Positions 1,705 to 27,252 are shown, numbered from the stretch's first letter. The stretch is DNA of 34,093 nucleotides from an uncultured Candidatus Saccharibacteria bacterium (GCA_965231105.1 OZ246417.1:1-34093), one strand, 5' to 3'. Notes: generated from the letters alone by a model not told the origin. Translations and numbers: made by a program.

Positions 1705-1732
1705 TTGAAATCGACTTGTTTACAGATACGAT
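1705..1732 (+). promoter_or_regulatory. Putative sigma70 promoter of the VOC gene
   Basis: TTGAAA-16 nt-TACGAT; the -10 box ends 6 nt before ATG 1739. Confidence 0.5.
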
Positions 1733-1738
1733 GAGAAT

Positions 1739-2107
1739 ATGAAAATAACAAACTTAGTATTCTGGGTCAACGAAAATCGGATCAGCGAAAAGTTTTATCG
1801 CAAACTTGGCTTTGATATTACCGAATCAACCGATCGCCACTCGGTAGTGAGGCTCAATGGATTCGATATTATGCTCGTGAATATGCGGGATGAAGAGCCA
1901 TTCGCCAATGATGCGATGGTTGGGCATAAAGGTAAGGGCATGTATGTGTATATTCAAGTCGAAGACGTAGACCAGCTGCACACGCACTTAAAAGAAATTG
2001 GTATCAGCCCGGCTACCGAACCAAAAGATTGGGACTGGGGTAATCGTGAGTTTGTTGTTAAAGACCCTGATGGCTACAAACTCTGTTTTTGGCAGCCGAG
2101 TAAATAA
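1739..2107 (+). CDS. VOC family (glyoxalase/bleomycin-resistance) protein
   Basis: SEKFYRKLGF near the N-terminus, YIQVEDVDQLH, and PKDWDWGNREFVVKDPDGYKL: a typical VOC signature. Confidence 0.92.
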   Translation: MKITNLVFWVNENRISEKFYRKLGFDITESTDRHSVVRLNGFDIMLVNMRDEEPFANDAMVGHKGKGMYVYIQVEDVDQLHTHLKEIGISPATEPKDWDWGNREFVVKDPDGYKLCFWQPSK

Positions 2108-2198
2108 CTGTCGTATCTTCTGATGATAGACGGTTGAAAGAGCATTAGTTAGAATAAAATAGAGTCGCTCAGTCCCGACAGAATTAAGAGGCAAGTAC

Positions 2199-2531
2199 AT
2201 GGAGATAAGACAGGCACCGGGTGGAAGAGCAAAAGTAACGCTCGAGAGTTTTAGTGAGCATAGCTATGTAGCCCCCTTGTTGCGCTCTCATATCGGGGCG
2301 TTCGCAAAGTCCAAATTAGCTTTGGCAACACTTAGTCCCGAGTATCCTAATCGCTTTTCTACAGTTGTAATTGAGCAGCAAGATCTACCAGATATACTTG
2401 GCAGCGTTCAGGTACGAAGGCATGCATTGGGCGAGGCTGTTGGGGGTCAGGAAGCTCTTCATGAATGGATTATCATGAAAGATGTGGTAAGAGCATTACG
2501 AGGTTTTATAGCGCCCGCTGAGCAAAGTTAA
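2199..2531 (+). CDS. Hypothetical protein (110 aa)
   Basis: Only plausible ORF in the interval; weak AGAGG SD; no family recognised. Confidence 0.55.
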   Translation: MEIRQAPGGRAKVTLESFSEHSYVAPLLRSHIGAFAKSKLALATLSPEYPNRFSTVVIEQQDLPDILGSVQVRRHALGEAVGGQEALHEWIIMKDVVRALRGFIAPAEQS

Positions 2532-2542
2532 AAAGCTTCTTT

Positions 2543-3127
2543 TTAGTTTCGTGGCAAGGTTGGGGCAATAACCGGTATAACGGGCATGCTAACCTGTAGT
2601 GCTTCAAAAGCTGAGCGGGTTAGCTCTGCGTCGTGTCGTGTGTAGTTATCATGAAGCATTTCAAGCGCTTGATCTGGCTGTGCCCAGGTTACTTCGTGTC
2701 TTGGATTAGGGTCTGGGCCATACACAATAGTAGGGGCTACTGCAGGCATAAAGATTTTTCCTTTAGCCTTTGGCCAGTTTTCTTTCTCCGGCTTATCAAG
2801 TGGTAGGGGAGCTATATCTACATACGGGATAAGTGTAACAAGCTCAGATACTACTCGCGCATTAGGGCCGAGCGTTGCGTTGGTTCTGTTTCGGGCGGTA
2901 GTTGCCACCTTATCTTGAACTGTTTCGCTAAATTTTGGATTTGGTCGATGTAAACTTCCTTCAGGAAGACGTAACGAAACACCGTTTTTACCAGTAACTA
3001 AGGCAACTGAACCAAGTTGGTTAACAATAACCAGCTTAAGAGCAGGCACATATAACGAATCTGCACGACATGCAGCACCGAGTACATCGGTCGGTTCAAA
3101 CGACTGAGGAATTCTCTCGTAACTCAT
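2543..3127 (-). CDS. Nudix-fold-like protein with a degenerate Nudix box
   Basis: LKLVIVNQLGSVALV...LRLPEG...SETVQDKVATTARNRT...EVTWAQPDQALEML follows the Nudix layout but lacks REUXEE. TATAAT lies 9 nt upstream of ATG. Confidence 0.55.
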   Translation of the reverse strand: MSYERIPQSFEPTDVLGAACRADSLYVPALKLVIVNQLGSVALVTGKNGVSLRLPEGSLHRPNPKFSETVQDKVATTARNRTNATLGPNARVVSELVTLIPYVDIAPLPLDKPEKENWPKAKGKIFMPAVAPTIVYGPDPNPRHEVTWAQPDQALEMLHDNYTRHDAELTRSAFEALQVSMPVIPVIAPTLPRN

Positions 3128-3186
3128 AGGGGCATAATTATAACCTAAGTAGTAAAGAATGTCAACTACTTATGCTTTATTTATAG

Positions 3187-3211
3187 AGGGGAAGAGGTGG
3201 TCTCTTCCCCT
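3187..3211 (-). terminator. Putative terminator hairpin after the ybaK-family gene
   Basis: Perfect 10-bp stem AGGGGAAGAG-gtggt-CTCTTCCCCT just downstream of the stop at 3221; the U-tract is weak. Confidence 0.5.
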
Positions 3212-3220
3212 GATTTAGCC

Positions 3221-3751
3221 TTACTCTCGCGTAAGTGTCAGAACTTTTGCGTTAGGTAAGGAGGCTAAAAGCTCTCCGCTCACTGCAAGCTTCGATTCAC
3301 GTACACCACTACCTACTATGGCTTGAGGCAAGGCTGCGGCCTGGCTGTCTACCAGGATTAGCCAATCGGCAGGGAGTCCTAGAGGGGAAATCCCACCATA
3401 TTCCATACCTGATAGGGAAACGGCCCTGTCCATGGGTGCGAAGGATACTTTCTTGGCGCCTAACTCTCGTCGTACGATGCCGTTAATATCTGCTCGCATG
3501 GTGGCTGGCACTAAGCACGCAGCATACCAGGTACGGTCTGCACGTTTTGCCTCTACAATTACGCAGTTTACCGAGATGTCTAAACCAATGCCGTATCGCT
3601 CACAAAAAGCAGCGGTATCCGATACGGCAGGGTCGATTTCTGAAACCAGGACGCCGGATAGTTTATTTGCCTGAACGCTTTCCTGGACAGGTTTGCCAAT
3701 TAAATTTAAGTTATCTTCAACAGGGGTGAAGTTTAATTTACCAATGTTCAT
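3221..3751 (-). CDS. YbaK/EbsC (INS superfamily) aminoacyl-tRNA deacylase-like protein
   Basis: SGMEYGGISPLGLP, ILVDS...IVGSG and RADINGIVRRELGAKKVSFA motifs; AAGGAG SD. Confidence 0.9.
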   Translation of the reverse strand: MNIGKLNFTPVEDNLNLIGKPVQESVQANKLSGVLVSEIDPAVSDTAAFCERYGIGLDISVNCVIVEAKRADRTWYAACLVPATMRADINGIVRRELGAKKVSFAPMDRAVSLSGMEYGGISPLGLPADWLILVDSQAAALPQAIVGSGVRESKLAVSGELLASLPNAKVLTLTRE

Positions 3752-3859
3752 ATATTCTCCTTAGTTAGTTAAAACAATGTGCTAAGGAGTGAGATTAGAA
3801 ACCTTTGAAAGTCTTCATTGGTTTTATTATACCATAAAATTATTTATTCTGAGGTCATC

Positions 3860-4440: not shown

Positions 4441-4511
4441 AGCTTAATTATACCTCGAACGGATGCCACGGTAATTATTAATAGGAGCATAAGCGTGTAT
4501 ACTTTTTGGTA

Positions 4512-5534: not shown

Positions 5535-5593
5535 GTGAAATACCTTACACCCGGGGGTTGCATCCAGTAGGTACCGGCGTACTATGAGGATAT

Positions 5594-6346: not shown

Positions 6347-6368
6347 AAATTAAATAAACATTAACTAT

Positions 6369-6397
6369 TTGACATAGTAACAAGCTGATGCTATCAT
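6369..6397 (+). promoter_or_regulatory. Sigma70 promoter
   Basis: TTGACA (6369-6374)-17 nt-TATCAT (6392-6397). Confidence 0.75.
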
Positions 6398-6420
6398 AAG
6401 CGCATTCGATAGGGATTTTG

Positions 6421-6458
6421 AGGGTTTCGTGCCAACCGGCACGGAACCTTTTTCTTTT
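6421..6458 (+). terminator. Intrinsic terminator between the promoter and the KGG gene
   Basis: 13-bp stem AGGGTTTCGTGCC-aacc-GGCACGGAACCTT followed by TTTCTTTT. Confidence 0.8.
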
Positions 6459-6491
6459 CCTGGAGAGGCAAACTAAGGGAGGCTATTACGA

Positions 6492-6689
6492 ATGGCTGGA
6501 ACAAAGAATGGTGGCAAAGCTGCTGCCTCAACAAACAAATCTAAGTACGGTGCTGATTTTTATGCACGTATCGGTGCTATCGGTGGTAAGAAGGGTCACA
6601 CTGGTGGCTTTGCTGCTAACCGTGAATTAGCTCGTACTGCTGGTGCTAAGGGCGGTCGTATTTCTCGCCGCACTAAGAAGACTGCCTAA
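6492..6689 (+). CDS. KGG-repeat general stress protein (YciG/GsiB/Con-10-like)
   Basis: FYARIGAIGGKKG...ELARTAGAKGGR; GGAGG SD; highly biased codon usage. Confidence 0.88.
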   Translation: MAGTKNGGKAAASTNKSKYGADFYARIGAIGGKKGHTGGFAANRELARTAGAKGGRISRRTKKTA

Positions 6690-7033: not shown

Positions 7034-7076
7034 ATGCGTACGACTCTACCATTGCTTCTCTAAAAGAAAAAGAGAT

Positions 7077-8349: not shown

Positions 8350-8434
8350 GGCTTCAGTGTAGCATAGAGTTAATATTGAATTTTACTTAAAAATATGCTA
8401 AAATAACCTTATCTTACTATTTCATTAAACAAAC

Positions 8435-9294: not shown

Positions 9295-9362
9295 TATCTG
9301 TAAGTCTGACTGGAGAAACGATCCAAGGATCGCCACAGTACTCATAAGGAGGCATGTATAAC

Positions 9363-10450: not shown

Positions 10451-12217
10451 ATGGCCACGATGATTGAAATCGAAGACATGATTACCGTCGGTGCCTTGGC
10501 GGACAAACTTTCTCTGCCAGTCGCTAAGATTATCACCGAGCTAATGAAGAACGGTGTGTTGGCGACCGTGAATGAAAAGATTGATTTTGATACTGCTCAG
10601 ATCATTACCGGCGAGTTGGGTCTGAGTGATGTAGAGCTCATAAAGAAAGAGCAGGCAACTGAAGCTACTCCGCGTGTTAAAGCTGCCGTTACCGATCCGA
10701 ATGCAAAATCACGTCCACCTGTAGTGGCAGTAATGGGCCATGTCGATCATGGCAAAACCTCACTGCTTGATGCTATTCGGAGCGCCAATGTCGTGAAGGG
10801 TGAGGCCGGTGGCATTACCCAGCACATCTCTGCGTATAAGATTGATCATGGTGGTCGTGGCATTACTTTCTTAGATACCCCCGGCCACGAAGCCTTTGCA
10901 GCCCTCCGCGAACACGGTGCTCAGTTAACTGATCTCGTTATTATCGTTATTGCTGCTGATGATGGTATTAAACCACAAACCCAAGAAGCAATCCGCTTTG
11001 CCCGCAAGGCCGGCGTAAAGATGCTGGTGGCGATTACCAAGATCGATAAGCCAGAAGGCGATCAAAACCGCATCAAGCAACAGCTCGCCGAAGCAGAGCT
11101 TATGCCTGAAGAATGGGGTGGTGACACGGTAGTATTAGGCGTTTCTGCTAAGACAGGCGAAGGTCTCAAAGAACTGCTTGATATGGTACTTTTGATTGCT
11201 GATGTAGAAGAACTTAAGGCGCTTTATAACGTACCTGCTACCGGTCTTATTATCGAATCGCATATGGAAACCGGTCGCGGCTCAGTAGCTGAGGCTCTGG
11301 TAGAGCAGGGTACGCTTCGTCCAGGAGACTTTGTGGTGGCTGGTGGTACCTACGCAAAGGTTCGTAACCTTGAATCAACCACCGGCGGTGCCCTCAAAGA
11401 AGCAACACCTTCTACACCGGTTGTTATTACAGGCTTTAAGAACCTTCCAGAGTTTGGCGATGCTTTCCAGGTTGTGAAGAATGAAAAAGAAGCTCGCTCA
11501 GTGGCAGCTGGTGAAGCCCATGGTCGCAAGGGTGGCGCAGGCCATCTTGAAATGAGCAGTAACGAACTCATTCGTCTTATTAACCGCTCAAATCAGCTGC
11601 AAGAATTAAATATCATTGTCAAAGCAGACGTCCAGGGTTCATTAACTTCTGTCATTGATAGCTTGAAGACGTTAGATAACGAAGAAGTTGCGGTACGCGT
11701 TGTAGGGTCTGGTGTTGGTGCTATTACTGAAAATGACTTACATATGGCACATACTTCAAAAGCCATCATCTACGGCTTCCATGTGCCCCTGCCAAGCAAT
11801 ATTAAACAGCTGGCTTCTCGTGATAAGGTCTCGATCCGTCTATATAAGGTTATTTACGAATTAATTGATGACGTGAAGCAGGAGCTTACTGCGCTGCTTG
11901 CCCCCGAAGTGGTTGAGACACCACTCGGTCGCTTGGTGGTAAAGGGCATCTTTAAGACAACAAAAACAGAAGTTATTTGTGGTGGTGAAGTCACCAAGGG
12001 CAAGCTGGCCCTACCGGCTCTCGCTAAGGTCATGAGAGGCAATGAAGAGATTGCCGAAGTTGAGGTGACGAACCTCAAGCGTGGCCCTGTTGATGCGAAG
12101 GAAGTACTTGAAGGCGAAATGTGTGGACTGAGCTTTAAGAGCACTGCCCGCGTTGACATTGCAGAGGGCGATCACATTGAGTTATTTACTCGTGAATTAA
12201 AAACCCGAACTTTATGA
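10451..12217 (+). CDS. infB: Translation initiation factor IF-2 (short form)
   Basis: RPPVVAVMGHVDHGKTSLLD, GGITQHI, DTPGHEAF, KADVQGS; AAGGAG SD. Confidence 0.99.
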   Translation: MATMIEIEDMITVGALADKLSLPVAKIITELMKNGVLATVNEKIDFDTAQIITGELGLSDVELIKKEQATEATPRVKAAVTDPNAKSRPPVVAVMGHVDHGKTSLLDAIRSANVVKGEAGGITQHISAYKIDHGGRGITFLDTPGHEAFAALREHGAQLTDLVIIVIAADDGIKPQTQEAIRFARKAGVKMLVAITKIDKPEGDQNRIKQQLAEAELMPEEWGGDTVVLGVSAKTGEGLKELLDMVLLIADVEELKALYNVPATGLIIESHMETGRGSVAEALVEQGTLRPGDFVVAGGTYAKVRNLESTTGGALKEATPSTPVVITGFKNLPEFGDAFQVVKNEKEARSVAAGEAHGRKGGAGHLEMSSNELIRLINRSNQLQELNIIVKADVQGSLTSVIDSLKTLDNEEVAVRVVGSGVGAITENDLHMAHTSKAIIYGFHVPLPSNIKQLASRDKVSIRLYKVIYELIDDVKQELTALLAPEVVETPLGRLVVKGIFKTTKTEVICGGEVTKGKLALPALAKVMRGNEEIAEVEVTNLKRGPVDAKEVLEGEMCGLSFKSTARVDIAEGDHIELFTRELKTRTL

Positions 12218-12232
12218 TAGGATGAAATTACG

Positions 12233-12942: not shown

Positions 12943-13242
12943 ATGGCTAAGAAGCGATCCGAAACCCGGAATCTGATAGAAGAAATATGGGCAACGGGAC
13001 AAGGGGATAAGCCTCCAGTTGAAAAAGACTCTGAAATGCTTGGTGCTGTTCGAGGTGTCGGGATATTTATGATAGGGATAGTCGCCATAAATATTGGTGT
13101 AGCCTCATTGGAACTTGTAACTGAAGGTGAGCGCCCGTATTTTGCAACAGAAGAACCCTTGCAAGCTATTTCTCTCTCAAGTGGCTTAGAGTGTCCTGTG
13201 ACACCTCAACTGCGTCCAATGACCTTTGTACGAGGATTATAA
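12943..13242 (+). CDS. Hypothetical membrane protein (99 aa)
   Basis: Starts 2 nt after the previous stop; one hydrophobic segment (GVGIFMIGIVAINIGVASL). Confidence 0.55.
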   Translation: MAKKRSETRNLIEEIWATGQGDKPPVEKDSEMLGAVRGVGIFMIGIVAINIGVASLELVTEGERPYFATEEPLQAISLSSGLECPVTPQLRPMTFVRGL

Positions 13243-14103
13243 ATCTTTGCTGTAACCGCGGATAAACTCAGCTGCAGTCATCTCATTTTTGCCAGCTGGT
13301 TTGAGTGAGTCGATAACAAGAAAACTCTGACTCGTTTTTAGCGCGACTTCGTTTTTGTTCGCTGTATCTGCCGTATGCGCCTTGGTAACAATGACGTCCT
13401 TGCCAGCAAGCGTTGTATAGCTTTTGGGCCACTCGGCGTAAGCACGGATTTCACGCTCTAAAACTTCAGCAGATTTATGTAGATCAATACGCCCATCTTC
13501 TTTGGTTAGCTTGCGCGAATAGGTTGCTTCGCCTACTTGGGCTTGAGGCTGGAGTTCTCCCTCTAGATACAAGGGTAGGGTAGCTTTGAGGGTTTCAAAG
13601 CTTAGTTCAATTAAAGCATCGGTAAGGGAAGCGGTCGTGGCGTCGATAGGAATGTCGTATGAGGCTTGGGCAAGCAGGGGTCCTTCATCCATCTTTTCGA
13701 CCAGCAGCATAAGGCTCACACCAGTTTGCTTTTGGCCAGAGAGAATTGCGAAAGTGATGGGATCGGCGCCACGCCATTCAGGAAGCAGAGAGAAATGACT
13801 ATTAACAATACCCTTTGGAAAATAATCGATAGTTTTTTGGCTGACGATAATACCAAAGTCAATCAGGACGCCTACGGTACTTTCAAATGGTTTCGTCTCT
13901 ATCAAAGCATCTAATTCGTTTTTGTTTGAAACGGTTTTAACAGGCAGCTGCAGCCTTTTAGCAATGTCCAAAACAGGAAAGTCACCGCGATGGTGCTCAG
14001 GCTTTGGCTTCGTTACGACTGCTTCAATGGTAAAAACTTGGGCAAGTAATTCTAGGGACTTGGCGGCAACGGGTCCTGAACCAAAAAAGACTAGGCTGCC
14101 CAT
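13237..14103 (-). CDS. fmt: Methionyl-tRNA formyltransferase
   Basis: VFFGS, VNSHFSLLPEWRGADPI, TGVSLMLLVEKMDEGP, TYSRKLTKEDG, LKPAGKNEM. Confidence 0.97.
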   Translation of the reverse strand: MGSLVFFGSGPVAAKSLELLAQVFTIEAVVTKPKPEHHRGDFPVLDIAKRLQLPVKTVSNKNELDALIETKPFESTVGVLIDFGIIVSQKTIDYFPKGIVNSHFSLLPEWRGADPITFAILSGQKQTGVSLMLLVEKMDEGPLLAQASYDIPIDATTASLTDALIELSFETLKATLPLYLEGELQPQAQVGEATYSRKLTKEDGRIDLHKSAEVLEREIRAYAEWPKSYTTLAGKDVIVTKAHTADTANKNEVALKTSQSFLVIDSLKPAGKNEMTAAEFIRGYSKDL

Positions 14104-14663
14104 AGGTCTTTGGTCGCCGTTTCGTATTCAAGTTCTGCAAGTTTGCCGTCGTCTTCAAGGCGATAGAAGGCATCGGGAACACCCTTGATGTGGTCTATAA
14201 AGAGAATGCCATTGGTATGGTCGATCTCGTGCTGTAATACACGGGCAAGGAAACCTTCGGCGGTAAGGCGGATTTCTTTGCCGCTTTCATTTAAAGCTTT
14301 AACTCGTACTTTGTTAAAACGTTTTACCTTACCGTACAGATCTTTCACGCTCAGACAACCTTCGAAATCTTCCTCTTCTTTACCCTCAAATTTGGTAATC
14401 TCAGGGTTAATAAGGGCCATAAAGCCACGATCGTTTTTATCATCGAAATTATTACGGACAATCACAATGCGCAAAGGAATATCGATCTGAATGGCAGCTA
14501 AAGCTACACCTACCTCGTGTTCTCGATTGTCTTCCCAATCAAGGGTAGCTTCTGCCATCTTGGCAATAATATCTTTGACCTCTTTGGAAATAAGGCCAAT
14601 CTTTTTTGAGCGCTGGCGAAGGTGTTCGTTCGGCAGCGTAATAATGTCGTCTCGGGTTGCCAT
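14091..14663 (-). CDS. def: Peptide deformylase
   Basis: GVALAAIQI, EGCLS, QHEIDHTNG. Confidence 0.98.
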   Translation of the reverse strand: MATRDDIITLPNEHLRQRSKKIGLISKEVKDIIAKMAEATLDWEDNREHEVGVALAAIQIDIPLRIVIVRNNFDDKNDRGFMALINPEITKFEGKEEEDFEGCLSVKDLYGKVKRFNKVRVKALNESGKEIRLTAEGFLARVLQHEIDHTNGILFIDHIKGVPDAFYRLEDDGKLAELEYETATKDLWAA

Positions 14664-14697
14664 TAGATCTTAGTATAACTTAACAGAGAAAGAACCG

Positions 14698-16635
14698 CTA
14701 CAGCAGGTTGGCGGGATCAAGGTCATATATCCAGTTGCCAGCAGGCAGGGCGTGGATAGCTTTAATAAGTTCTTTGCGGTCGGTTGCTTTTAGAATTAGC
14801 TGCCAGTGATACATGCCATGTGCGTGTTCGTAATAGCTGGGTGTAGGTGCACTGAGACGAACTTTCAGTTTTGTGGTTTGGAGGGCGCTGTGGAGCTTTT
14901 TAATTGCACTCTCAGCACTCCCGCTACTCTTACGCGAAAGGCTAATTTTTAAGAGGTAGCAGAAAGGGGGAAATAGGAATGTTTTCCGCTCAATAAGCTC
15001 AGTTTCATAGAAAGTCTTATAGTCTTTTGCGATGGCTGCCTGCAGGATGGGATTATCGGGTACATAGGTCTGCAAGATAACTTGGCCTTTACGGTGGCCA
15101 CGCCCCACACGGCCTAAAACCTGATGAAGGAGCTGGTAGCTTCGTTCGGCAGCCGTGTAATCGGGAAGGTAAAGACTGGTATCGGCCGCTACGACCCCTA
15201 CTAAACTGAGTTTTGGAAGGTCCAGACCCTTACCGAGCATTTGTGTGCCTACTAAGATATCTACTTTACCTTCGCGAATATCTTTGAAGTGCTTATCGAT
15301 GCGATCTTCGACACCCAAATCAGTATCAAAGCGCTTAATGCGGGCATTGGGAAAGAAGTTCTGCAGCGTATCTACGAGGGCCTTAGTGCCCATAACACGG
15401 TATTGAAGCTCGGTACTTTCGCATACCGGACAGCTTAATGGCGCGGTTTCACGATGTCCGCATGTATGGCAGCGCAACGAGTGACCATCACCATGATAGG
15501 TAAGTGGCAGGTCACAATTAGGGCATAACGCTTGCCAACCGCAGTTTTGGCAGATAACTAATCGGGCTGTTCCGCGACGATTGAGATAAATCAGCGCCTG
15601 TTCCTTTTTATTAAGCACGTCATTGATGGCATCGAGTAGCTCATCGGCTAAGAAAGGATGCCGCGCAAAGAGGGTCTTGTCCGTGAGGTTAATGACCGAA
15701 GTCGAGACTTCCCCAACGTTGCCTTTCGCTGAGCTGGTCATGCGGATGGTGGGGACGCCTGCTGCATCGGCAAGGTAGTAATCGGCTACGGGTGGTGTCG
15801 CACTTCCGTATATAATCTCGGCATCATAAAAACCGGCCAATGCCCCAGCTACCCGTACGGCCTGATAGCGGGGAGCTTGTTCCTGTTTATACGCAGGTTC
15901 ATGAAACTCATCCACCACGATGAGCCCGACATTTTTAAGTGGGCTAAAGAGAGCTGAGCGAGGCCCAATAATAACGAGCGGTTCTTCCGTCGTAATAATG
16001 TGTAGCCATAATTCACGGCGTTTTTTTGCTGTGATATTAGAGTGAATAATACGCACCTTATCTCCAAACTGAGTGGCAAAATCTTCAGCTAACTGAGGAG
16101 TTAAAGCAATTTCTGGCGTGAGAATCAGTGCAGACTTACCAGCCTCCAAGCATGCCTTTGTACGCTCCATATATATGCGCGTTTTGCCACTGCCCGTCTC
16201 ACCATGCAAGATAAAGCGTGAGCCAGTTTTCATAATTTCTAGGGCCTTCAATTGTTCATCGGTTAAAGGGGGAAGGGCTGGGGCTGGAACAGATTTTTCG
16301 GGTTCGAGTCCCGTCGCCTCCACGGGAAGTTTTAATACAGCGCTTGGTAAAAAGAGTTGGGCAATGCTGCCGCTGCCAGCAGGGTAGTAGCTTAGTAACC
16401 ACTCAAAAAGTTTGATCTGAGCTTTGGGTAGTACGGCGTTATGAATAGGCCGGATAATTGATTTGGTAGGGAAGGAAGGTTCAGAGACATCTTGATGTAC
16501 AAAGCCCAAAACCTCTTGTTTGCCTAAGGGTACTATCACAACCGAGCCAGGCACCAACAAGACCTCACTGCTATACGTGAGCGGTTCCTGCTTTTGATAG
16601 CGATTAGACGCAACCCATACCTCGTAATACCTCAT
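14698..16635 (-). CDS. priA: Primosomal protein N' (replication-restart helicase)
   Basis: HGETGSGKT, DEFH, Cys-rich zinc region (CQNC, CPNC, CHTC, CPVC), GTQMLGKGLD, QVLGRVGR. Confidence 0.98.
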   Translation of the reverse strand: MRYYEVWVASNRYQKQEPLTYSSEVLLVPGSVVIVPLGKQEVLGFVHQDVSEPSFPTKSIIRPIHNAVLPKAQIKLFEWLLSYYPAGSGSIAQLFLPSAVLKLPVEATGLEPEKSVPAPALPPLTDEQLKALEIMKTGSRFILHGETGSGKTRIYMERTKACLEAGKSALILTPEIALTPQLAEDFATQFGDKVRIIHSNITAKKRRELWLHIITTEEPLVIIGPRSALFSPLKNVGLIVVDEFHEPAYKQEQAPRYQAVRVAGALAGFYDAEIIYGSATPPVADYYLADAAGVPTIRMTSSAKGNVGEVSTSVINLTDKTLFARHPFLADELLDAINDVLNKKEQALIYLNRRGTARLVICQNCGWQALCPNCDLPLTYHGDGHSLRCHTCGHRETAPLSCPVCESTELQYRVMGTKALVDTLQNFFPNARIKRFDTDLGVEDRIDKHFKDIREGKVDILVGTQMLGKGLDLPKLSLVGVVAADTSLYLPDYTAAERSYQLLHQVLGRVGRGHRKGQVILQTYVPDNPILQAAIAKDYKTFYETELIERKTFLFPPFCYLLKISLSRKSSGSAESAIKKLHSALQTTKLKVRLSAPTPSYYEHAHGMYHWQLILKATDRKELIKAIHALPAGNWIYDLDPANLL

Positions 16636-16780
16636 GGTGTAATAAGTATACCGTAAAGGAGTAATTTAATTTCTGCACCCCTTATGCTTGCACCTAAAAA
16701 TTAACTACGCTATATTGCATACCCAAGCGAACGGAGCTATACTAGTTGTTGTTCTAATAACAATGAGAGGTTCAAAGGGG

Positions 16781-17073: not shown

Positions 17074-17102
17074 TTGCTAATTTATCTCTGTTAGGATACA
17101 AT
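17074..17102 (+). promoter_or_regulatory. Sigma70 promoter of rpsU (near-leaderless)
   Basis: TTGCTA-17 nt-TACAAT, 8 nt before ATG; no SD. Confidence 0.7.
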
Positions 17103-17343: not shown

Positions 17344-17369
17344 AAGGGCCCTTCGAGAGGGCCTTTTTT
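17344..17369 (+). terminator. Intrinsic terminator after rpsU
   Basis: AAGGGCCCT-tcgag-AGGGCCTTTTTT. Confidence 0.85.
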
Positions 17370-17463
17370 AATGACTATAAAAATTAAGAATCATTTAATG
17401 TTAACTATTAACTTTAATTAAGATGGTGCAAAAACGGTAGGCTATCTGGTACACTTTGAAAGA

Positions 17464-17919
17464 ATGAGTATTAAAGAGCAAATTGACGCTGACCTAAAGG
17501 CCGCTATGCTTGGTGGTGATAAGGTCTTAACCACGACCCTTCGTGGTATTAAAAGTGCAATTCTTTACGCTGAAGTAGCAGCCAATAAAAGAGATAGTGG
17601 CTTAGCCGATGAAGAGCTTGTTAGTCTGCTCGGTAAAGAGGCTAAGAAGCGCCAAGAAAGTGCCGATCTCTATACGCAAGGTGGGAGTGAAGAAAAGGCC
17701 AAGGCCGAGCTTGCCGAGAAGCTGGTTATTGAGAAGTATCTTCCTAAACAGATGAATGATGAGGCCTTAAAGAATTTGGTTGAAGCTGCCGTTACCGAAA
17801 CCGGTGCAGCAAGTATGCAGGATATGGGTAAAGTTATAGGACTCGTGAAGCAACGAGCAGGTGCTGCAGCCGATGGGGGCCGCATTGCACAAATGGTGAA
17901 GGAACGTTTGAGCCAATGA
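17464..17919 (+). CDS. yqeY: GatB/YqeY domain protein
   Basis: DLKAAMLGGDK...KEAKKRQESADLY...AELAEKLVIEKYLPKQM...DMGKVIG. Confidence 0.93.
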   Translation: MSIKEQIDADLKAAMLGGDKVLTTTLRGIKSAILYAEVAANKRDSGLADEELVSLLGKEAKKRQESADLYTQGGSEEKAKAELAEKLVIEKYLPKQMNDEALKNLVEAAVTETGAASMQDMGKVIGLVKQRAGAAADGGRIAQMVKERLSQ

Positions 17920-18455
17920 TTATTTTCATGGGTGTGGCTGGTTCCGGAAAAAGTATCCAGGGCCGCACACTTGCCGATGAACTAGCTTTGCCATGGCTCT
18001 CAACCGGTGAGTTTTTGCGTATGCTCATTGCCGGCGACAAGCGTCGCGACATGGTAGCAGGTAAGCTCTTAAGTGATAAAGAAATTATTACTCTCGTGCA
18101 AAAGATCTTTCACATGATCAATATTAACGAAGAGTTTGTTTTGGATGGGTTTCCTCGTACCACTGCTCAGGCGGATTGGCTATTATCACAGGTAAAACAT
18201 GGGCAGTTGCATGTAACGGCTGTTATTCACCTCACTGCTTCAGAAGAGGCAGTGATGAAGCGCCTACTATCGCGTGGTCGCCAAGATGATACAGAAGAAG
18301 CGGTGCGAGAACGTTTCCGCGAATACGAAGAAGCTGCTCTACCGATCATTCAGCACTTTAGAAATGCGGGTGTCCCTGTCCACGATATTAATGGCGAGCA
18401 ACCAGTTGAAAAAGTACATGCCGACATCAAGCAAGCATTACAGGCGGATGACTAG
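17916..18455 (+). CDS. adk: Adenylate kinase, short (LID-less) type
   Basis: GVAGSGKS P-loop, LSTGEFLR, LDGFPR, RLLSRGRQDDTEE; ATGA overlap with yqeY. Confidence 0.88.
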   Translation: MIIFMGVAGSGKSIQGRTLADELALPWLSTGEFLRMLIAGDKRRDMVAGKLLSDKEIITLVQKIFHMININEEFVLDGFPRTTAQADWLLSQVKHGQLHVTAVIHLTASEEAVMKRLLSRGRQDDTEEAVRERFREYEEAALPIIQHFRNAGVPVHDINGEQPVEKVHADIKQALQADD

Positions 18456-19207
18456 TGTTTACCAAAGTTAAAACTGATGCCGAAATTGAATCAATGCGCA
18501 TTGCGGGCAAAATGCTGGCGCAGACTCTGCAGTATGTAAAAGCAAATACGAAGGCAGGTATGTCTACCAAAGACCTCGCGCGCTTAGCCGCAAAAGAGGT
18601 AAAGCGATTAGGCGGCAAACCTTCTTTCCTTGGTTACGAAGGCTTTCCGGATGTTTTATGTGTATCTATCAATGATGAAGTGGTGCATGGTATTCCAAGT
18701 CGCCGCAAGATCTTAAAAGACGGTGATGTGGTAAGCATTGATTTTGGTGTGACTATTAATGACATGGTGACAGATGGTGCCATAACCTTCAGTCTAGGAC
18801 CGGCAGAAAAAGAAGTTGAGAAGCTTATTAAAGTTACCGAACAGTCTTTACTTGCTGGTATTGAAATGGTCAGACCAGGCGTACGGGTTGGTGATATTGC
18901 TCATGCAATTGAGAGCGTCCTAGAGCCATACGGCTTTGGCATTGTGCGTGATTTGGTGGGGCATGGCGTTGGGCATGAACTCCATGAAGATCCGAACATT
19001 CCTAATTACGGCCGCGCCGGTTCGGGACCTATGCTGCAAAAGGGCATGACGATTGCGATTGAACCAATGGCGACATTGGGAACTCACGCGGTTAGTATCG
19101 ATAACGATCATTGGACAATCCGTACGGCAGACGGCTCATTGGCCGCACATTTTGAACACACGGTTCTTATAACTGACGATGGTTATGAAATTTTGACTCA
19201 AGCCTAA
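18455..19207 (+). CDS. map: Methionine aminopeptidase type I
   Basis: SINDEVVHGIP, SIDFG, DGAIT, GHGVG, AIEPM, AHFEHTV; GTG start overlaps the adk stop. Confidence 0.98.
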   Translation: MFTKVKTDAEIESMRIAGKMLAQTLQYVKANTKAGMSTKDLARLAAKEVKRLGGKPSFLGYEGFPDVLCVSINDEVVHGIPSRRKILKDGDVVSIDFGVTINDMVTDGAITFSLGPAEKEVEKLIKVTEQSLLAGIEMVRPGVRVGDIAHAIESVLEPYGFGIVRDLVGHGVGHELHEDPNIPNYGRAGSGPMLQKGMTIAIEPMATLGTHAVSIDNDHWTIRTADGSLAAHFEHTVLITDDGYEILTQA

Positions 19208-19246: not shown

Positions 19247-19276
19247 TTGAAAAACCCCTAGCATAAGGGTTATACT
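19247..19276 (+). promoter_or_regulatory. Sigma70 promoter of ftsA
   Basis: TTGAAA-18 nt-TATACT, 9 nt before ATG. Confidence 0.6.
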
Positions 19277-20530: not shown

Positions 20531-20616
20531 TAACATTTTTTGTCCATAACTGTTGTAAGCAGTGATGGGTTGGCTTATACTTTAAGGTAGTTAGTGTGAA
20601 CAAGGAGCTTTGATCA

Positions 20617-22594: not shown

Positions 22595-22756
22595 AGCACC
22601 TACATAAAAATGGGTGGTTGACGACTCCCAATCAAGTTTTATACGATATATATGCTATAAAACGGGAGCGTTCGTTTTAGCCGAAAAAGAGAGACGACTA
22701 AAACGAAAACTCTAAGACAAAAACACTATTAAAATCTAATCAAAAGTGAGGGTAGA

Positions 22757-25537
22757 TTGATGGCACAGGCAACTGGCTTGGGAGTTCGAAGACTCTTTAC
22801 AAAACCAAAATCGAAAGCGTATGACGCATTCACATGGGTTAAGCGCGACTCTGTTATTACTAATCCAATGACCAAGAAGCCTGTCTTTGAGCAGCTGGGT
22901 GTTGAGTTCCCGGAATCTTGGTCAATGAATGCCATTAATATTGTGGCTCAGAAGTATTTTACCGGTACTCCTGGTACTGATGAGCGTGAGAGTTCACTCA
23001 AGCACCTCGTTGATCGTGTTGCTGATACGATTACTCGTCAAGGTAAGCAGGAAGGTTATTTTGAAACTGATTCAGAAGCAGAAGACTTCCGTGAGGAATT
23101 AAAATACATCCTCGCCTCACAGCGAGCTGCTTTTAACAGTCCTGTGTGGTTTAACATCGGTGCACCATCACGTGCTCAGCAGGCCAGCGCCTGTTTCATC
23201 TTAGCCGTTGACGACACGATGCCTTCTATCCTTAACTGGTACCGTGAAGAAGGTATGATCTTTAAGGGTGGATCTGGTTCAGGTGTTAATGTGAGCTCTA
23301 TTCGCTCAAGCAAAGAGAAGCTTGGCAAGAGTGCCGGTACTGCATCTGGTCCGTTGTCATTTATGCGTGGGGCTGATGCTTCGGCTGGTGCTATTAAGAG
23401 CGGTGGTAAGACTCGTCGTGCTGCCAAGATGGTGATTATGAATGTTGATCACCCTGATGTGCGTGAGTTCATCTGGTGTAAGGCAATTGAAGAGCGCAAA
23501 GCATGGGTACTTAAAGAGAGCGGCTTTGACATGGACCTTGATGGCAAGGACTCATTCTCTGTTCAGTACCAGAATGCGAACAACTCTGTTCGTGTCACTG
23601 ACGACTTCATGAAAGCAGTTGAAGCAGATGGCGACTGGGATCTTCGAGCTGTTACAACAGGCAAGAGCATTGAAACTGTAAAGGCTCGTGATATTTGGCG
23701 ACAGATCGCTGAAGCAGCATGGGAATGTGCCGATCCAGGTCTGCAGTTCGATACAACGGTTAATAACTGGCACACCACCCCAAACGCTGGTCGTATCAAT
23801 GGTTCTAACCCTTGTTCTGAGTATATGCACCTTGATAACTCAGCCTGTAACCTCGCGAGCATTAACTTGCTTCACTTCTTAAACGATGACTTCAGTTTTG
23901 ATATTGAAGCCTTCAAGCACACCGTTGAGGTTATCTTTACTGCTCAGGAAATCCTTGTTGGTTACTCAGAGTACCCAACCGAGAAGATCACCAAGAATGC
24001 TCGTGCCTACCGCGAACTTGGTATTGGCTACGCAAACTTGGGTGCACTTTTGATGGCTATGGGTCTTCCATATGATTCAGACGAGGGTCGTGCTATCGCT
24101 GCTGCCGTGACTGCCTTAATGACCGGACATAGCTATGCAACCTCTGCACGCTTGGCTCGCCAAGTCGGACCATTTGCTGGATTCCATAAGGACCGCGAAG
24201 GCATGTTAAACGTACTTCGCATGCACCGTGCGGAAGTAAGCAAGATCGATGCTAGCTTGGTATCTGAAGAACTTCTGAGTGCTGCAGCCAGTGCATGGGA
24301 TGAAGCAGTTGAGCTCGGTGAACTCTATGGGGTTCGTAACTCACAGGCTTCATTGCTTGCTCCAACCGGCACCATCGGTTTCATGATGGACTGTGATACT
24401 ACTGGTATCGAACCAGACCTTGGGTTGGTTAAGTTTAAGAAGTTAGTTGGTGGTGGCACCATGACCATCGTGAACCAAACTGTTCCACGTGCATTAAAGG
24501 CCTTAGGCTATAACAAGAAGCAAATCGATGCGATCGTAAAGCACATCGATGAAGAGAAGACAATCTTAGGTGCTCCAGGCCTCAAGAAGGAGCATGAACC
24601 AGTCTTTGCATGTTCAATGGGTGACAATGCTATCCATTACACCGGTCACGTTAAGATGATGGGCGCTGTACAGCCATTCCTTTCCGGTGCTATCTCTAAG
24701 ACGGTAAACATGCCAGAAGAAGTAACGGTTGAAGAAATCGAACAGCTACACTTTGACTCATGGAAGCTCGGCCTTAAGGCAGTTGCTATCTATCGAGACA
24801 ACTGTAAGGTTGGTCAGCCGCTGTCTATGCTTAAGAAGGGTGGAGACGAAAAGAACGAAGTTGCTGCAACCAAAGCTACAGATACCCTTAATGAGAAGAT
24901 CATTGTAAAGGGAACGGTTCGCCGTAAGTTGCCTCGTGTTCGCAACTCAAAGACCTATCACTTTGAACTTGCCGACCTTGATGGTTACTTCACTGTTGGT
25001 GAATATGAAGACGGTGCTCCTGGTGAACTGTTCGTGAGTATCAGCAAGCAGGGTTCAACTATGTCTGGTCTCATGGACTCCTTCGCTATCAGTGTGAGCC
25101 ATGGTCTCCAGTATGGCGTGCCACTTAAGAGCTACGTAAAGACACTGCGTGGCACCAGCTTTGCGCCAGCCGGTATTACGGATGATCCAGATATCCGTAC
25201 CGCAAGCTCGCTTACTGACTATATCGTTCGCCGCCTAGCTCTCGACTACCTCAGTTTTGATGATCGTCTTGAGCTTGGTATGGCAGATATCGATGATATG
25301 CCAGAAGAGCAGACGAGTCTCTTAAGCGAAGATACGGTTCACCCCGTTGAGGAGCCAAAAGTGGCTGTAGCTGCTGCAGCTGCACCAACACCGGTTGCGG
25401 TTGCCGAAGCGCCAAAGCCAAAGGCTGCCAAGCGCGATGAAGCTGCGCCACTCTGTTACAACTGTGGTAACCAGACCCAAAAAGCCGGTACCTGCTATGT
25501 CTGTACCAGCTGCGGTTCAACCACTGGCTGCTCTTGA
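22757..25537 (+). CDS. nrdJ: Class II (adenosylcobalamin-dependent) ribonucleotide reductase with a C-terminal TSCPD/zinc-ribbon region
   Basis: FNSPVWFN, SACFIL, KSGGKTRRAAKM, SNPCSEY, ACNLAS, APTGTI, SGAISKTVN, and a C-terminal CYNCG...CTSCG...GCS. Confidence 0.97.
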   Translation: MMAQATGLGVRRLFTKPKSKAYDAFTWVKRDSVITNPMTKKPVFEQLGVEFPESWSMNAINIVAQKYFTGTPGTDERESSLKHLVDRVADTITRQGKQEGYFETDSEAEDFREELKYILASQRAAFNSPVWFNIGAPSRAQQASACFILAVDDTMPSILNWYREEGMIFKGGSGSGVNVSSIRSSKEKLGKSAGTASGPLSFMRGADASAGAIKSGGKTRRAAKMVIMNVDHPDVREFIWCKAIEERKAWVLKESGFDMDLDGKDSFSVQYQNANNSVRVTDDFMKAVEADGDWDLRAVTTGKSIETVKARDIWRQIAEAAWECADPGLQFDTTVNNWHTTPNAGRINGSNPCSEYMHLDNSACNLASINLLHFLNDDFSFDIEAFKHTVEVIFTAQEILVGYSEYPTEKITKNARAYRELGIGYANLGALLMAMGLPYDSDEGRAIAAAVTALMTGHSYATSARLARQVGPFAGFHKDREGMLNVLRMHRAEVSKIDASLVSEELLSAAASAWDEAVELGELYGVRNSQASLLAPTGTIGFMMDCDTTGIEPDLGLVKFKKLVGGGTMTIVNQTVPRALKALGYNKKQIDAIVKHIDEEKTILGAPGLKKEHEPVFACSMGDNAIHYTGHVKMMGAVQPFLSGAISKTVNMPEEVTVEEIEQLHFDSWKLGLKAVAIYRDNCKVGQPLSMLKKGGDEKNEVAATKATDTLNEKIIVKGTVRRKLPRVRNSKTYHFELADLDGYFTVGEYEDGAPGELFVSISKQGSTMSGLMDSFAISVSHGLQYGVPLKSYVKTLRGTSFAPAGITDDPDIRTASSLTDYIVRRLALDYLSFDDRLELGMADIDDMPEEQTSLLSEDTVHPVEEPKVAVAAAAAPTPVAVAEAPKPKAAKRDEAAPLCYNCGNQTQKAGTCYVCTSCGSTTGCS

Positions 25538-25558
25538 TCCTAAAAGAGCAGCAGAGAA

Positions 25559-25589
25559 AAGAAGAGCTCCCTAAAAAGGAGCTTTTCTT
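25559..25589. terminator. Bidirectional terminator between nrdJ and the HAD gene
   Basis: AAGAAGAGCTCC-7 nt-GGAGCTTTTCTT, with A-run and U-run flanks. Confidence 0.8.
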
Positions 25590-25607
25590 ATGTTTAGAAT
25601 AAATATA

Positions 25608-26423
25608 TTACCTTCTAGCCAGGATTGCGGGAAGTTCAGATAGGGAAGTAATAATATGGGTCGCACCAGCTTTTCTGAGGACTGACTCGTCTTCAAAACC
25701 GTGCGTAATACCTATACCTTCCGCAATTCCTGCGCTTGCCCCGGATTGGATGTCGTAGGTATGATCACCCATGACAGCGGCATTTTCAGGACGTACCCCT
25801 AAGCGCTCCAGGGCTATCAGCGCACTTAAAGGATCGGGTTTTGTTCGTTCCTGTACGTCATCACAGGTAACAACTGTAAGTTTTGGGATATTAAATACTT
25901 CTTCTAGTCTCTCCGTAAACATGTTTAATTTCGTAGGATCGTCAATACTTCGATCTTGATAAAGTGAACTGTAGCTACCAACTCGATCTTTCAATGCAAT
26001 ACCGAAGTTTCTTACGATATGATGGGGTGTACCACTGGTAAAAATTCCCAGCTTAATCCCCATCCTTCCTATCTTAGCTAAAGTATCGGCAAGATGAGGA
26101 AAAGGCTGTATATATTCAGGGGCGAGCCTATCTTGAATAGGGTCAAGGAGCGCATGCAGTTCGTCATAATCCATGCCTTCGAGATGATGAGTCCGGTCTT
26201 CATAGAGTGCACGAACTGTACGCTCTAAGGTTTGACGAGCGCTTCCGCCTACCACCTGGTTGAGAAGTTTTTCATATTGATCATACTGAGGTATGTCTCC
26301 TGCAGGTACGCCGTGATGGCGGAGGAAGGTAACGGCAGTTTCGTATTGTCCATGACGAATAAGGGGTACCGTGTTTACTAAGGTACCGTCTGCATCGGAA
26401 ATAAGGGCTTCAAAAGCTTGCAT
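25608..26423 (-). CDS. HAD-superfamily hydrolase (phosphatase-like)
   Basis: Motif I ISDADGTL, motif II FTSG, KPDP, motif IV MGDHTYDI. The start is probably at 26423 or 26429, not 26492. Confidence 0.9.
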   Translation of the reverse strand: MQAFEALISDADGTLVNTVPLIRHGQYETAVTFLRHHGVPAGDIPQYDQYEKLLNQVVGGSARQTLERTVRALYEDRTHHLEGMDYDELHALLDPIQDRLAPEYIQPFPHLADTLAKIGRMGIKLGIFTSGTPHHIVRNFGIALKDRVGSYSSLYQDRSIDDPTKLNMFTERLEEVFNIPKLTVVTCDDVQERTKPDPLSALIALERLGVRPENAAVMGDHTYDIQSGASAGIAEGIGITHGFEDESVLRKAGATHIITSLSELPAILARR

Positions 26424-26515
26424 AACCATAAAATAACACAGATTACACTTATAAATGAAACTTCTCTCGGAAGGATTACATACAAGACTCACGAAAACCG
26501 GTATACTAAGCAGGT

Positions 26516-26782
26516 ATGAAAGTGCTTATCTTTTACAGGCCAGATTCAGAACATGCTCGTAGTGTCGAAGAATTTGTTCACGACTTCGGTAAACAATATC
26601 CAGACTTAAGTCTCACGCTCGTTAACCCCGATACCATTGATGGCAGCCAAAAGGCTGAAGTCTATGATGTGATGAGCTACCCGACCACCATTGCAATTAG
26701 CAATGATGGCAGTATTTTGTCTCGGTGGGATAATGGTGGCATGCCCCTTATGAACGAAGTGGCTTATTACGCCAATCAGTAA
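26516..26782 (+). CDS. Small thioredoxin/glutaredoxin-fold-like protein without cysteines
   Basis: beta-alpha-beta pattern, AEVYDVMSYPT (cis-Pro-like), SEHA in place of CxxC. Confidence 0.65.
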   Translation: MKVLIFYRPDSEHARSVEEFVHDFGKQYPDLSLTLVNPDTIDGSQKAEVYDVMSYPTTIAISNDGSILSRWDNGGMPLMNEVAYYANQ

Positions 26783-26817
26783 TTGTACTTTATGTGTATT
26801 GGTATTAGGATATAGTC

Positions 26818-27252
26818 ATGAACAAACCCGCCGTTATTACAGCAGGAATGCTAGGCCTAGGAACTGGTGTATCAGTTGGTGAAGTAGCTCAGCGACTAGA
26901 GATTAATAGTGCAAAACAAGATGTAGAAGATGGAGCCATTTGTATTGCAGGCGAAGTGCCTGTACGACAAGAAGAGGATGGGCTGCTTCATTGTCTCGAT
27001 ATTACTTTAGAAGTAGCGGACGAAGTGTCTGAAGGCTCGACAGTATCCATCGACTGGCAAGCTACCGAAGAGCGACTCCATGGGAGTTTGCAATTTGCTC
27101 AAGATAAAGAAAGACGAGCAGGGTTGGACGGTATATTCGGGGTAATGGGAGCTGCTCTGGTAGGTGGCGTTGTCTATATAGTCACTGAGGGGCATATGCG
27201 GTCTCGCTTTTACGCGCCAAAAAAGTTCAGTAGTTCACGACGTTTAGCGTAA
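26818..27252 (+). CDS. Hypothetical membrane protein (144 aa)
   Basis: N- and C-terminal hydrophobic segments; TTGTAC-17 nt-TAGGAT promoter 6 nt before ATG. Confidence 0.6.
   Translation: MNKPAVITAGMLGLGTGVSVGEVAQRLEINSAKQDVEDGAICIAGEVPVRQEEDGLLHCLDITLEVADEVSEGSTVSIDWQATEERLHGSLQFAQDKERRAGLDGIFGVMGAALVGGVVYIVTEGHMRSRFYAPKKFSSSRRLA

Follow-up and report, generated by a model that had tools for sequence, protein, structure and literature searches.

The window, a 34,093-nucleotide stretch of the genome of an uncultured Candidatus Saccharibacteria bacterium (OZ246417.1), raises the question of where its mRNAs begin. The initial annotation listed 14 genes in which a TANNNT hexamer resembling a −10 box stands 6–9 nt before the ATG, a layout expected of leaderless mRNAs, and proposed that this mode of initiation operates side by side with Shine–Dalgarno (SD) sites.

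Hexamers and gene starts in the window

On re-reading the sequence, all 14 hexamers, gaps and ATGs were exactly as listed (Table 1). For 13 of these genes, the stretch from the upstream in-frame stop to the ATG is free of other possible start codons; the exception is the 4512 gene, with a TTG 6 nt 5′ of its ATG. The called starts appear sound, since the Pfam domains of ROK, def, YqeY, VOC, DUF5663 and PriA open within 2–16 residues of the N-terminus. The box of the 108-aa gene is an extra case that was absent from the original list.

Table 1. −10-like hexamers upstream of ATG starts in the window (positions counted from its first nucleotide)
Gene	Hexamer	Position	Strand	Gap (nt)	ATG	−35 element	Remarks
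VOC/glyoxalase gene	TACGAT	1727..1732	+	6	1739	TTGAAA at 1705, spacer 16	
194-aa gene ('Nudix-like')	TATAAT	3137..3142	-	9	3127	TTGACA, spacer 17	No Pfam match; perfect promoter, 3165-3137
DUF1801 gene	TATAAT	4447..4452	-	6	4440		
340-aa gene	TATACT	4498..4503	+	8	4512		Divergent from DUF1801 gene; family not assigned
GNAT acetyltransferase	TACTAT	5580..5585	+	8	5594		−10-like; ambiguous
108-aa gene	TAGAGT	7043..7048	-	9	7033		No Pfam match; extended −10, TGgTAGAGT
ROK-family kinase	TACACT	8356..8361	-	6	8349		Extended TGc
DUF5663 gene	TAGGAT	12218..12223	+	9	12233		TGaTAGGAT; 15 nt 3′ of infB
def (peptide deformylase)	TATACT	14672..14677	-	8	14663		Within 34-nt priA-def spacer
priA	TATACT	16645..16650	-	9	16635		
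rpsU (S21)	TACAAT	17097..17102	+	8	17111	TTGCTA at 17074, spacer 17	
yqeY	TACACT	17450..17455	+	8	17464		Extended TGg (TGgTACACT); 3′ of rpsU terminator-like hairpin
ftsA	TATACT	19271..19276	+	9	19286	TTGAAA at 19247, spacer 18	
88-aa gene ('Trx-like')	TATACT	26502..26507	+	8	26516		No Pfam match
144-aa gene	TAGGAT	26806..26811	+	6	26818		No Pfam match; ambiguous

Five genes had also been credited with a −35 box. The VOC, ftsA and rpsU genes indeed carry one, but the GNAT and 26818 genes have a TTG only. The perfect −35 of the 'Nudix-like' gene did not feature among these five. Each of the genes described as SD-led (rpsA at 9354, infB at 10451, ftsZ, the ybaK-like gene at 3751, ileS at 27485 and the KGG gene at 6492) does possess an SD.

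Positional peak of the hexamer across the genome

The enclosing 903-kb Saccharibacteria (TM7) genome yielded 884 genes with a home-made caller that sets the start at the first ATG following an in-frame stop. TANNNT occupies gaps 6–9 before the first ATG in 246 of these 884 genes (27.8 %), and in 14 of the 34 genes called in the window. Other 4-nt windows located 14–61 nt upstream contain TANNNT in 10.6 % of cases, close to the initial guess of under 10 %. The enrichment noted among the window genes is real. Shuffling the 40-nt upstream regions gave 95.9±8.9 genes (10.8 %), and only 33 of 765 internal in-frame ATGs (4.3 %) are preceded by the motif. Lack of a peak over shuffled sequence had been named beforehand as grounds for rejecting the idea; genome-wide, the peak is strong (z=17).

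An unbiased count of hexamers at gaps 6–9 returned two classes, TATAAT/TATACT/TACAAT and AAGGAG/AGGAGG, with individual members enriched 9–50-fold. Strong −10 hexamers number 49, 35, 29 and 25 at gaps 6, 7, 8 and 9, respectively, vs approx. 5 per position elsewhere, while TGNTANNNT occurs 87 times at gaps 6–9 and approx. 1.3 times per position elsewhere, with a range of 1.1–3.2 between −190 and +30. A Pribnow-type −10 motif is, in short, localised approx. 6–10 nt before gene starts, above background. Neither a box nor an SD was found for approx. 40 % of the genes delimited by our caller, suggesting that some starts are probably miscalled.

The anti-SD of the 16S rRNA (...GGATTACCTCCTTTCT) is canonical and intact, with CCTCCTTT at the 16S 3′ end, and AAGGAG/AGGAGG are enriched 45–53-fold before starts, with the SD core placed 4–12 nt ahead of the start.

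Promoter-type flanks and dependence on gene context

When the TANNNT sites were aligned, T was found at −3 in 50 % and G at −2 in 47 %, corresponding to an extended −10, and a weak TTG appeared at −23 to −21, corresponding to a 17-bp spacer. Neither feature had been used in picking the hexamers. A TG precedes the hexamer in 33.7 % of sites at gaps 6–9, vs 8.5 % at gaps 20–60 and 7.3 % in coding sequence (p=2e-26). The −35 elements are mostly weak. A two-hexamer consensus promoter scan of the window detected no overall enrichment (22 vs 27.5 expected; 26 vs 27.3), its top matches being the Nudix-like, ftsA, VOC and rpsU promoters; such a scan is too crude for promoters that mostly lack a −35. 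The extended −10 and −35 context identify the motif as a promoter element rather than an RNA signal.

The box is found in 37.8 % of divergent genes, 30.2 % of same-strand genes spaced by at least 30 nt and 16.8 % of genes in tight operons, and the SD follows the opposite trend (16, 27 and 38 %, respectively), such that the box favours the first genes of transcription units and the ribosome-binding site internal ones. The box also depends on the start codon: it precedes 29 % of ATG starts, compared with 8.8 % of GTG and 11.7 % of TTG starts, both of which are background values (Fisher p=1e-5), while the SD is found as often before GTG as before ATG. Box and SD nearly exclude each other (odds ratio 0.09), although this is partly geometric, since both would take up the same bases. 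The base before the ATG was considered as a class marker and rejected: it is a pyrimidine in 69 % of genes with a box and 61 % of those with an SD, too small a difference to be of use.

Retention among Saccharibacteria orthologues

We compared 80 loci from other Saccharibacteria (FtsZ 63–77 % identical, GC 33–59 %). The box is kept in 64 of 72 ftsA orthologues, 45 of 47 orthologues of the 88-aa gene (with an extended TG in 32 of these 45), 44 of 53 for def and 42 of 51 for priA. The information shared between orthologues is confined to the −10, the TG and, for ftsA, a conserved −35 (cTTGC), with none in the flanks. The commonest gap is 6, both genome-wide and among the orthologues of ftsA and priA. 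Among the SD-led genes scored in the same way, the SD is kept for ftsZ (50/74), nrdR (51/63), the ribonucleotide reductase gene (53/57) and infB (16/17); for rpsA and ileS, the SD was recorded in this genome. The two initiation modes postulated at the outset are supported, box and SD occurring in separate gene sets and each being retained in orthologues. That ftsA, priA, def and rpsU keep the box class-wide while their neighbours ftsZ, nrdR and infB keep the SD points to gene-specific selection on initiation mode.

It had also been suggested that genes with an operonic appearance have promoters of their own. This holds for def, with its conserved box in the spacer behind priA, and for yqeY, with an extended −10 behind the rpsU hairpin, but is doubtful for DUF5663. 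The yqeY box is poorly conserved (15/59 orthologues). Orthologues of the 26818 gene were not found in the sampled loci.

Proposed mechanism and alternative explanations

Taken together, the data make it very probable that leaderless or near-leaderless mRNAs coexist with SD-led genes in this organism. The hexamers are best read as sigma-70-type −10 elements (consensus TAtAcT/TAtAaT), many with a TGn and some with a weak TTG −35 approx. 17 bp away. From the promoter geometry, we infer that RNA polymerase would initiate at the A of the ATG or no more than approx. 3 nt from it. Transcripts of this kind would have no room for an SD site, and their translation would proceed in the leaderless mode, with the ribosome and initiator tRNA recognising the 5′-terminal AUG. 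In approx. one-quarter of the genes, the −10 box is only 6–9 bases from the ATG, and their mRNAs probably start with this codon. The SD is used by operon-internal genes and by a further group of first genes whose leaders are short (such as ftsZ, nrdR, infB, rpsA and ileS).

RNA polymerase usually starts approx. 7 nt past the −10, which for a gap of 9 (ftsA, priA and Nudix-like) would place the transcription start site (TSS) 2–3 nt before the ATG, and the gap distribution is broad (6 > 7 > 8–9, with a shoulder at 10–11); at gaps 8–11, the transcript may carry a leader of 1–5 nt and so not be strictly leaderless. It could then be argued that these mRNAs start 1–5 nt before the ATG, above all at gaps 8–11, and are translated by an SD-less, short-leader route rather than by 5′-AUG recognition. 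We consider this improbable: gap 6 is the commonest, the predominant pyrimidine at −1 followed by an invariant A at +1 in the box class is a favoured start context, and restriction to ATG fits recognition of a 5′ AUG. Leaders of 0–5 nt are in any case counted as leaderless in the mycobacterial literature. A different objection is that the TA-rich hexamer is not a promoter but a non-SD translation signal, i.e. an AT-rich ribosome landing site as in group B of GeneMarkS-2, given that the hexamer and the SD stand equally far from the ATG and that the former excludes the latter. Such a signal would serve internal operon genes equally, yet the box is depleted there, and it would carry neither a TG at exactly −3/−2 nor a TTG at 17-bp spacing; together with the conserved −35 of ftsA orthologues and a normal 16S rRNA anti-SD, this makes the objection very unlikely to be correct. 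Least credible is that the peak arises from chance, base composition or gene calling. Spacers are AT-richer than genes, and hexamers beginning with TAA or TAG at gaps 6 and 9 are in-frame stops that favour a 'first ATG' call. The peak nevertheless stands out against shuffles of the very same 40 nt and against neighbouring windows, and conservation in orthologues speaks against chance or artefact. The in-frame stop artefact can be discarded, as hexamers beginning with TA[TC], which cannot be stops, keep the peak, with a smooth fall from gap 6 to gap 9.

For a few genes, the preferred leaderless reading is less secure: two to three of the 14 sites, namely, both TAGGAT cases and GNAT, are ambiguous with an SD. 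In DUF5663, the 26818 gene and GNAT, we judge it somewhat the likelier account that the supposed −10 hexamer is an SD rich in purines (AGGA/GAGGA), the mRNA being leadered or polycistronic. TAGGAT includes an AGGA that falls 7–10 nt before the ATG (7 nt in the 26818 gene), and TAGGAG-type hexamers are enriched as SDs. The DUF5663 gene follows closely on infB, and its TAGGAT is more likely an SD because its orthologues mostly have one (25 SD vs 8 box), although the site also fits the extended −10 form. GNAT is ambiguous because a GAGGA lies 3–4 nt before its ATG, which is nevertheless too near for a normal SD.

Comparison with known leaderless systems

The layout is of a known kind. Group C of GeneMarkS-2 is described as showing frequent leaderless transcription, with a Pribnow box approx. 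6–8 nt from the first genes of operons and an SD elsewhere, and is documented chiefly for Actinobacteria (90 %) and Deinococcus-Thermus (97 %) (Lomsadze et al. 2018, PMC6028130). The present genome shares with group C a −10 box and an SD at equal distance in two separate gene sets, and a box on first genes with an SD on internal ones. Divergent genes suit this comparison because each must head a transcription unit; their box excess of approx. 28 % falls within the 25–50 % given for group C. Unlike group C, this genome has mid GC, informative −10 positions 3–5 (TAtAcT) and a frequent extended TG. Its features also match those of the TA-led leaderless genes of Zheng et al. 2011 (PMC3160421), which have a TANNNT core approx. 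12 nt before the translation start and, in mid-GC genomes, a TAtaaT-type logo, in some cases with a preceding TG peak; core, logo and TG peak are as found here. That survey predates CPR genomes and covers Actinobacteria, Deinococcus-Thermus, Aquificae, Chloroflexi and some Firmicutes.

Leaderless genes of Actinobacteria and Deinococcus-Thermus are defined by this same geometry, with TSSs confirmed by dRNA-seq (PMC6028130, PMC3160421, PMC4007540). Mycobacterium tuberculosis and M. smegmatis (PMC3898074, PMC4633059) and Deinococcus deserti (PMC4007540) display the same promoter–ATG geometry alongside SD-led genes; TSSs are measured in these organisms and deduced from promoter position in ours. 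Mycobacteria also use GUG on leaderless mRNAs (PMC4633059), in contrast to the ATG-only signal of the present genome.

Saccharibacteria and CPR are not mentioned in the main text of PMC6028130, and a Saccharibacteria genome may figure in one of its group C tables. For N. lyticus, PMC12641261 presents 188 RNA-seq-inferred TSSs with a variable −10-to-TSS distance, leaders going unmentioned in the article text, and a preprint on the TM7x transcriptome does not mention TSSs, promoters or leaders. Our searches found no published description of leaderless genes for Saccharibacteria/TM7, Patescibacteria, CPR, Parcubacteria or Microgenomates.

Occurrence in other Patescibacteria

From 19 genomes belonging to other Patescibacteria families, we sampled 100 kb each. 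Pooled, they have TANNNT at gaps 6–9 in 23.3 % of genes vs a background of 12.3 %, and TGNTANNNT 107 times vs 21 expected; taken one by one, approx. 13 of the 19 reach significance. In several, the box precedes 32–40 % of genes and the SD just 8–10 %, with the 16S anti-SD kept. Loss of the anti-SD has been reported for some Parcubacteria (PMC9297842), but is ruled out in this sample as the cause of low SD use, as all 16 readable 16S 3′ ends carry CACCTCCTTTCT. Leaderless initiation could be phylum-wide and possibly ancestral in Patescibacteria/CPR rather than peculiar to this genome or to Saccharibacteria, a proposal that we advance tentatively and rate at a little under an even chance.

Implications

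The advance lies in taxonomic breadth and not in a new principle, the kind of mechanism being well known. In the genomes of Saccharibacteria and other CPR, gene finders that expect an SD will set starts wrongly or overlook small genes. Saccharibacteria have become genetically tractable only recently, and compact TGnTAtAcT boxes 6–9 nt from the ATG offer a recipe for expression cassettes and an aid in reading operon structure. If leaderless initiation does extend across the phylum, much of the CPR proteome would be made from SD-less, leaderless mRNAs, which would bear on the reduced ribosomes of CPR, on how gene starts are annotated in thousands of MAGs and on the grouping of CPR with those Terrabacteria lineages in which leaderless genes are frequent.

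Genome-wide positional analysis

The contig is a single-contig genome of 903,164 bp (45 % GC), the window being its first 34 kb; all FtsZ relatives are from Saccharibacteria/Saccharimonadales MAGs (top identity 77 %), which places the genome in Saccharibacteria (TM7, Patescibacteria/CPR). The window opens with the 3′ end of the 23S rRNA gene and the 5S rRNA gene, followed by a terminator-like hairpin, while the 16S rRNA gene lies at the opposite contig end (~897 kb), placing the contig break inside the rRNA operon of what is presumably a circular genome. The anti-Shine-Dalgarno (anti-SD) sequence is canonical (16S rRNA 3′ end, ...GGATTACCTCCTTTCT).

The initial annotation listed 14 genes with a TANNNT hexamer 6–9 nt (the gap) before ATG, hereafter the box, and every hexamer and gap proved exact by script. 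Thirteen of these genes have no alternative start codon between the upstream in-frame stop and the ATG, and the Pfam domains of ROK, def, YqeY, VOC, DUF5663 and PriA start a few residues from the N-terminus, indicating that the start calls are not artefacts.

Genes and other features of the window, with counts of orthologues carrying a box or an SD (single positions: gene identities assigned from Pfam unless marked)
Feature	Position	Strand	Box	SD
23S rRNA 3′ end	1-663			
5S rRNA	834-950			
Terminator-like hairpin	959-981			
VOC	1739			
'Nudix-like' (no Pfam match)	3127	-		
DUF1801	4440	-		
GNAT	5594			
KGG gene promoter	6369-6397			
KGG leader hairpin	6420-6451			
KGG-repeat stress-protein gene (65 aa)	6492-6689	+		
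ROK	8349	-		
rpsA	9354			
infB	10451		0/17	16/17
DUF5663	12233			
priA-def-fmt cluster	13237-16635	-		
fmt	14103	-		
def	14663	-	44/53	
priA	16635	-	42/51	
rpsU	17111			
rpsU 3′ hairpin	17347-17372	+		
yqeY	17464			
adk-map cluster	17916-19207	+		
adk	17916	+		
map	about 18455	+		
ftsA	19286		64/72	
ftsZ upstream box and SD	20553-20616			
ftsZ	20617		3/74	50/74
nrdR	22121		0/63	51/63
Class II ribonucleotide reductase	22757		0/57	53/57
HAD hydrolase	26429	-		
HAD/88-aa divergence	26429-26516			
88-aa gene, 'Trx-like' (no Pfam match)	26516	+	45/47	
26818 gene (no Pfam match)	26818			
ileS	27485			
rplU	30513			

A simple gene caller, which scored codons by log-odds after training on long ORFs, chose non-overlapping genes greedily and took the first ATG as start, returned 884 genes at 90 % coding density. 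Across these, TANNNT occurs at gaps 6, 7, 8 and 9 in 9.8, 7.6, 5.6 and 6.5 % of cases, against ~3 % elsewhere. A box precedes 246/884 first-ATG starts (27.8 %), compared with 10.6 % in other 4-nt windows 14–61 nt upstream, 33/765 internal in-frame ATGs and 95.9 ± 8.9 genes in 200 shuffles of the 40-nt upstream regions (z=17); the positional peak over shuffled sequence, on which the initial annotation had made its reading depend, is therefore present. The excess over background amounts to ~150 genes (17 % of all genes). For divergently transcribed genes, necessarily the first of their transcription units, it is ~28 %.

Since TANNNT can contain a stop codon, in-frame stops were considered as a source of the peak; however, it persists with hexamers unable to be stops (non-stop strong −10 hexamers: 49, 35, 29 and 25 at gaps 6–9 versus ~5 per position elsewhere), ruling out this artefact. 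An unbiased hexamer count at gaps 6–9 revealed two enriched classes, one −10-like (TATAAT, TATACT, TACAAT, TACTAT and TACACT, 8–11 fold) and one SD (AAGGAG, AGGAGG and AGGAGA, 26–53 fold).

Promoter features and gene context

Alignment of 215 non-operonic cases, anchored on TANNNT alone, revealed an unselected extended −10 TGn (T 50 % at −3, G 47 % at −2), middle positions preferring T at 3, A at 4 and A/C at 5, and a weak TTG beginning 23 nt upstream, equivalent to a 17-bp spacer. Of the hexamers at gaps 6–9, 33.7 % have TG in front of them, versus 8.5 % of those at gaps 20–60 and 7.3 % of those within coding regions (p=2e-26). At gaps 6–9 there are 87 instances of the nine-base motif TGNTANNNT, versus 1.1–3.2 per position elsewhere from −190 to +30, with a small shoulder 20–39 nt upstream that is consistent with short SD-bearing leaders.

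Box usage depends on gene context (Fisher p=1e-7): 37.8 % of divergently transcribed genes carry a box (SD 16 %), 30.2 % of same-strand genes with a spacer of at least 30 nt (SD 27 %) and 16.8 % of tight-operon genes (SD 38 %), the last being a modest excess over 6.4 %. Box and SD occur together in 13 genes (odds ratio 0.09), a scarcity that is partly geometric as both need the same bases. A box is found before 29 % of genes starting with ATG, versus 8.8 % of those starting with GTG and 11.7 % with TTG (p=1e-5), while SD frequency is similar before ATG (32 %) and GTG (29 %). Leaderless translation, which needs a 5′-terminal AUG, would predict such an ATG-specific box.

Several loci in the window merit description. 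The KGG-repeat gene is the opposite of leaderless: a near-consensus promoter (TTGACA-17-TGcTATCAT) precedes a leader of ~90 nt with a 14-bp terminator-like hairpin and T-run, followed by an SD (GGGAGG). This structure might act as an attenuator or stabilise the 5′ end. The HAD hydrolase and 88-aa genes diverge from a short spacer with the palindrome AGTATACT, where transcription of both strands could rely on a single −10 region; the HAD start is uncertain, as the ATG fits the DxDGT motif and a GTG at 26492 gives a longer ORF. Close to the leaderless-type genes there are clustered genes that handle the N-terminal methionine, priA-def-fmt on the minus strand and adk-map immediately before ftsA, and def, which has its own leaderless-type promoter, is overlapped at its end by 13 nt of fmt.

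Conservation in Saccharibacteria

The same positional peak was found in 80 loci around ftsZ from other Saccharibacteria (GC 33–59 %, FtsZ identity 63–77 %), with TANNNT counts of 121, 65, 58 and 63 at gaps 6–9 versus ~33 elsewhere, and extended-form counts of 33, 22, 17 and 12 versus ~4. Among orthologues with the same N-terminus, the initiation mode (box or SD) is retained (Table). In the alignments the −10 hexamer is informative, including its unconstrained middle positions, while the flanks carry no information; the TG is informative among 88-aa gene orthologues, as is a cTTGC −35 among those of ftsA.

Two of the 14 genes are exceptions. The yqeY box is kept in only 15/59 orthologues, and DUF5663 orthologues mostly carry an SD (25 versus 8 with a box), hence its TAGGAT is probably an SD; in all, two to three of the 14 boxes are ambiguous with an SD. 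This bears on the earlier proposal that genes which look operonic can each have a promoter of their own; it holds for def (conserved box in a 34-nt spacer) and for yqeY but is doubtful for DUF5663. The yqeY box, TGgTACACT, lies beyond a GC-rich, terminator-like hairpin and T-run (gggcccttcgagagggcctttttt) directly 3′ of rpsU, which separates the two genes.

Upstream of ftsZ, a TATACT/TATAAx box ~25–35 nt before the ATG, together with an SD, is kept in orthologues (loci L002–L015). Judged from sequence, this is a putative conserved short-leader promoter directly downstream of leaderless-type ftsA, so the two cell-division genes would differ in initiation mode class-wide.

Mechanism and distribution

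Positional, contextual, codon and evolutionary evidence all document the box. The best explanation, supported in silico, is that these mRNAs are leaderless or near-leaderless. A compact extended −10 promoter, often −35-poor, would start transcription at the A of the ATG or very slightly upstream, while SD-led initiation would serve genes inside operons as well as another group of first genes. We infer start position and translation mode from promoter geometry, with support from dRNA-seq-validated leaderless cases in Mycobacterium and Deinococcus (PMC3898074, PMC4007540, PMC6028130).

The mechanism is of a known kind and not new, but the finding is of use for annotation and genetic tools in CPR bacteria. 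GeneMarkS-2 'group C' genomes (PMC6028130) share this layout, as do the TA-led genes that Zheng et al. described in 2011 (PMC3160421); the taxa named in those papers are Actinobacteria, Deinococcus-Thermus, Aquificae, Chloroflexi and some Firmicutes. Our literature search found no paper pairing 'leaderless' with Saccharibacteria, TM7 or CPR, although an unremarked supplementary-table listing is possible.

The analysis was extended to 100 kb per genome in 20 Patescibacteria genomes (L111–L210), 19 from other families and one (G010) from the same order. Pooled over the 19, the box precedes 23.3 % of genes versus a 12.3 % background, and the extended form occurs 107 times versus 21 expected; about 13/19 are individually significant. 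Some combine a box in 32–40 % of genes with an SD in 8–10 %, several being stronger than the Saccharibacteria genome described here, and the anti-SD is kept in 16/16 readable 16S 3′ ends of the sampled genomes. This suggests that the leaderless-type layout may be a phylum-wide trait of Patescibacteria.
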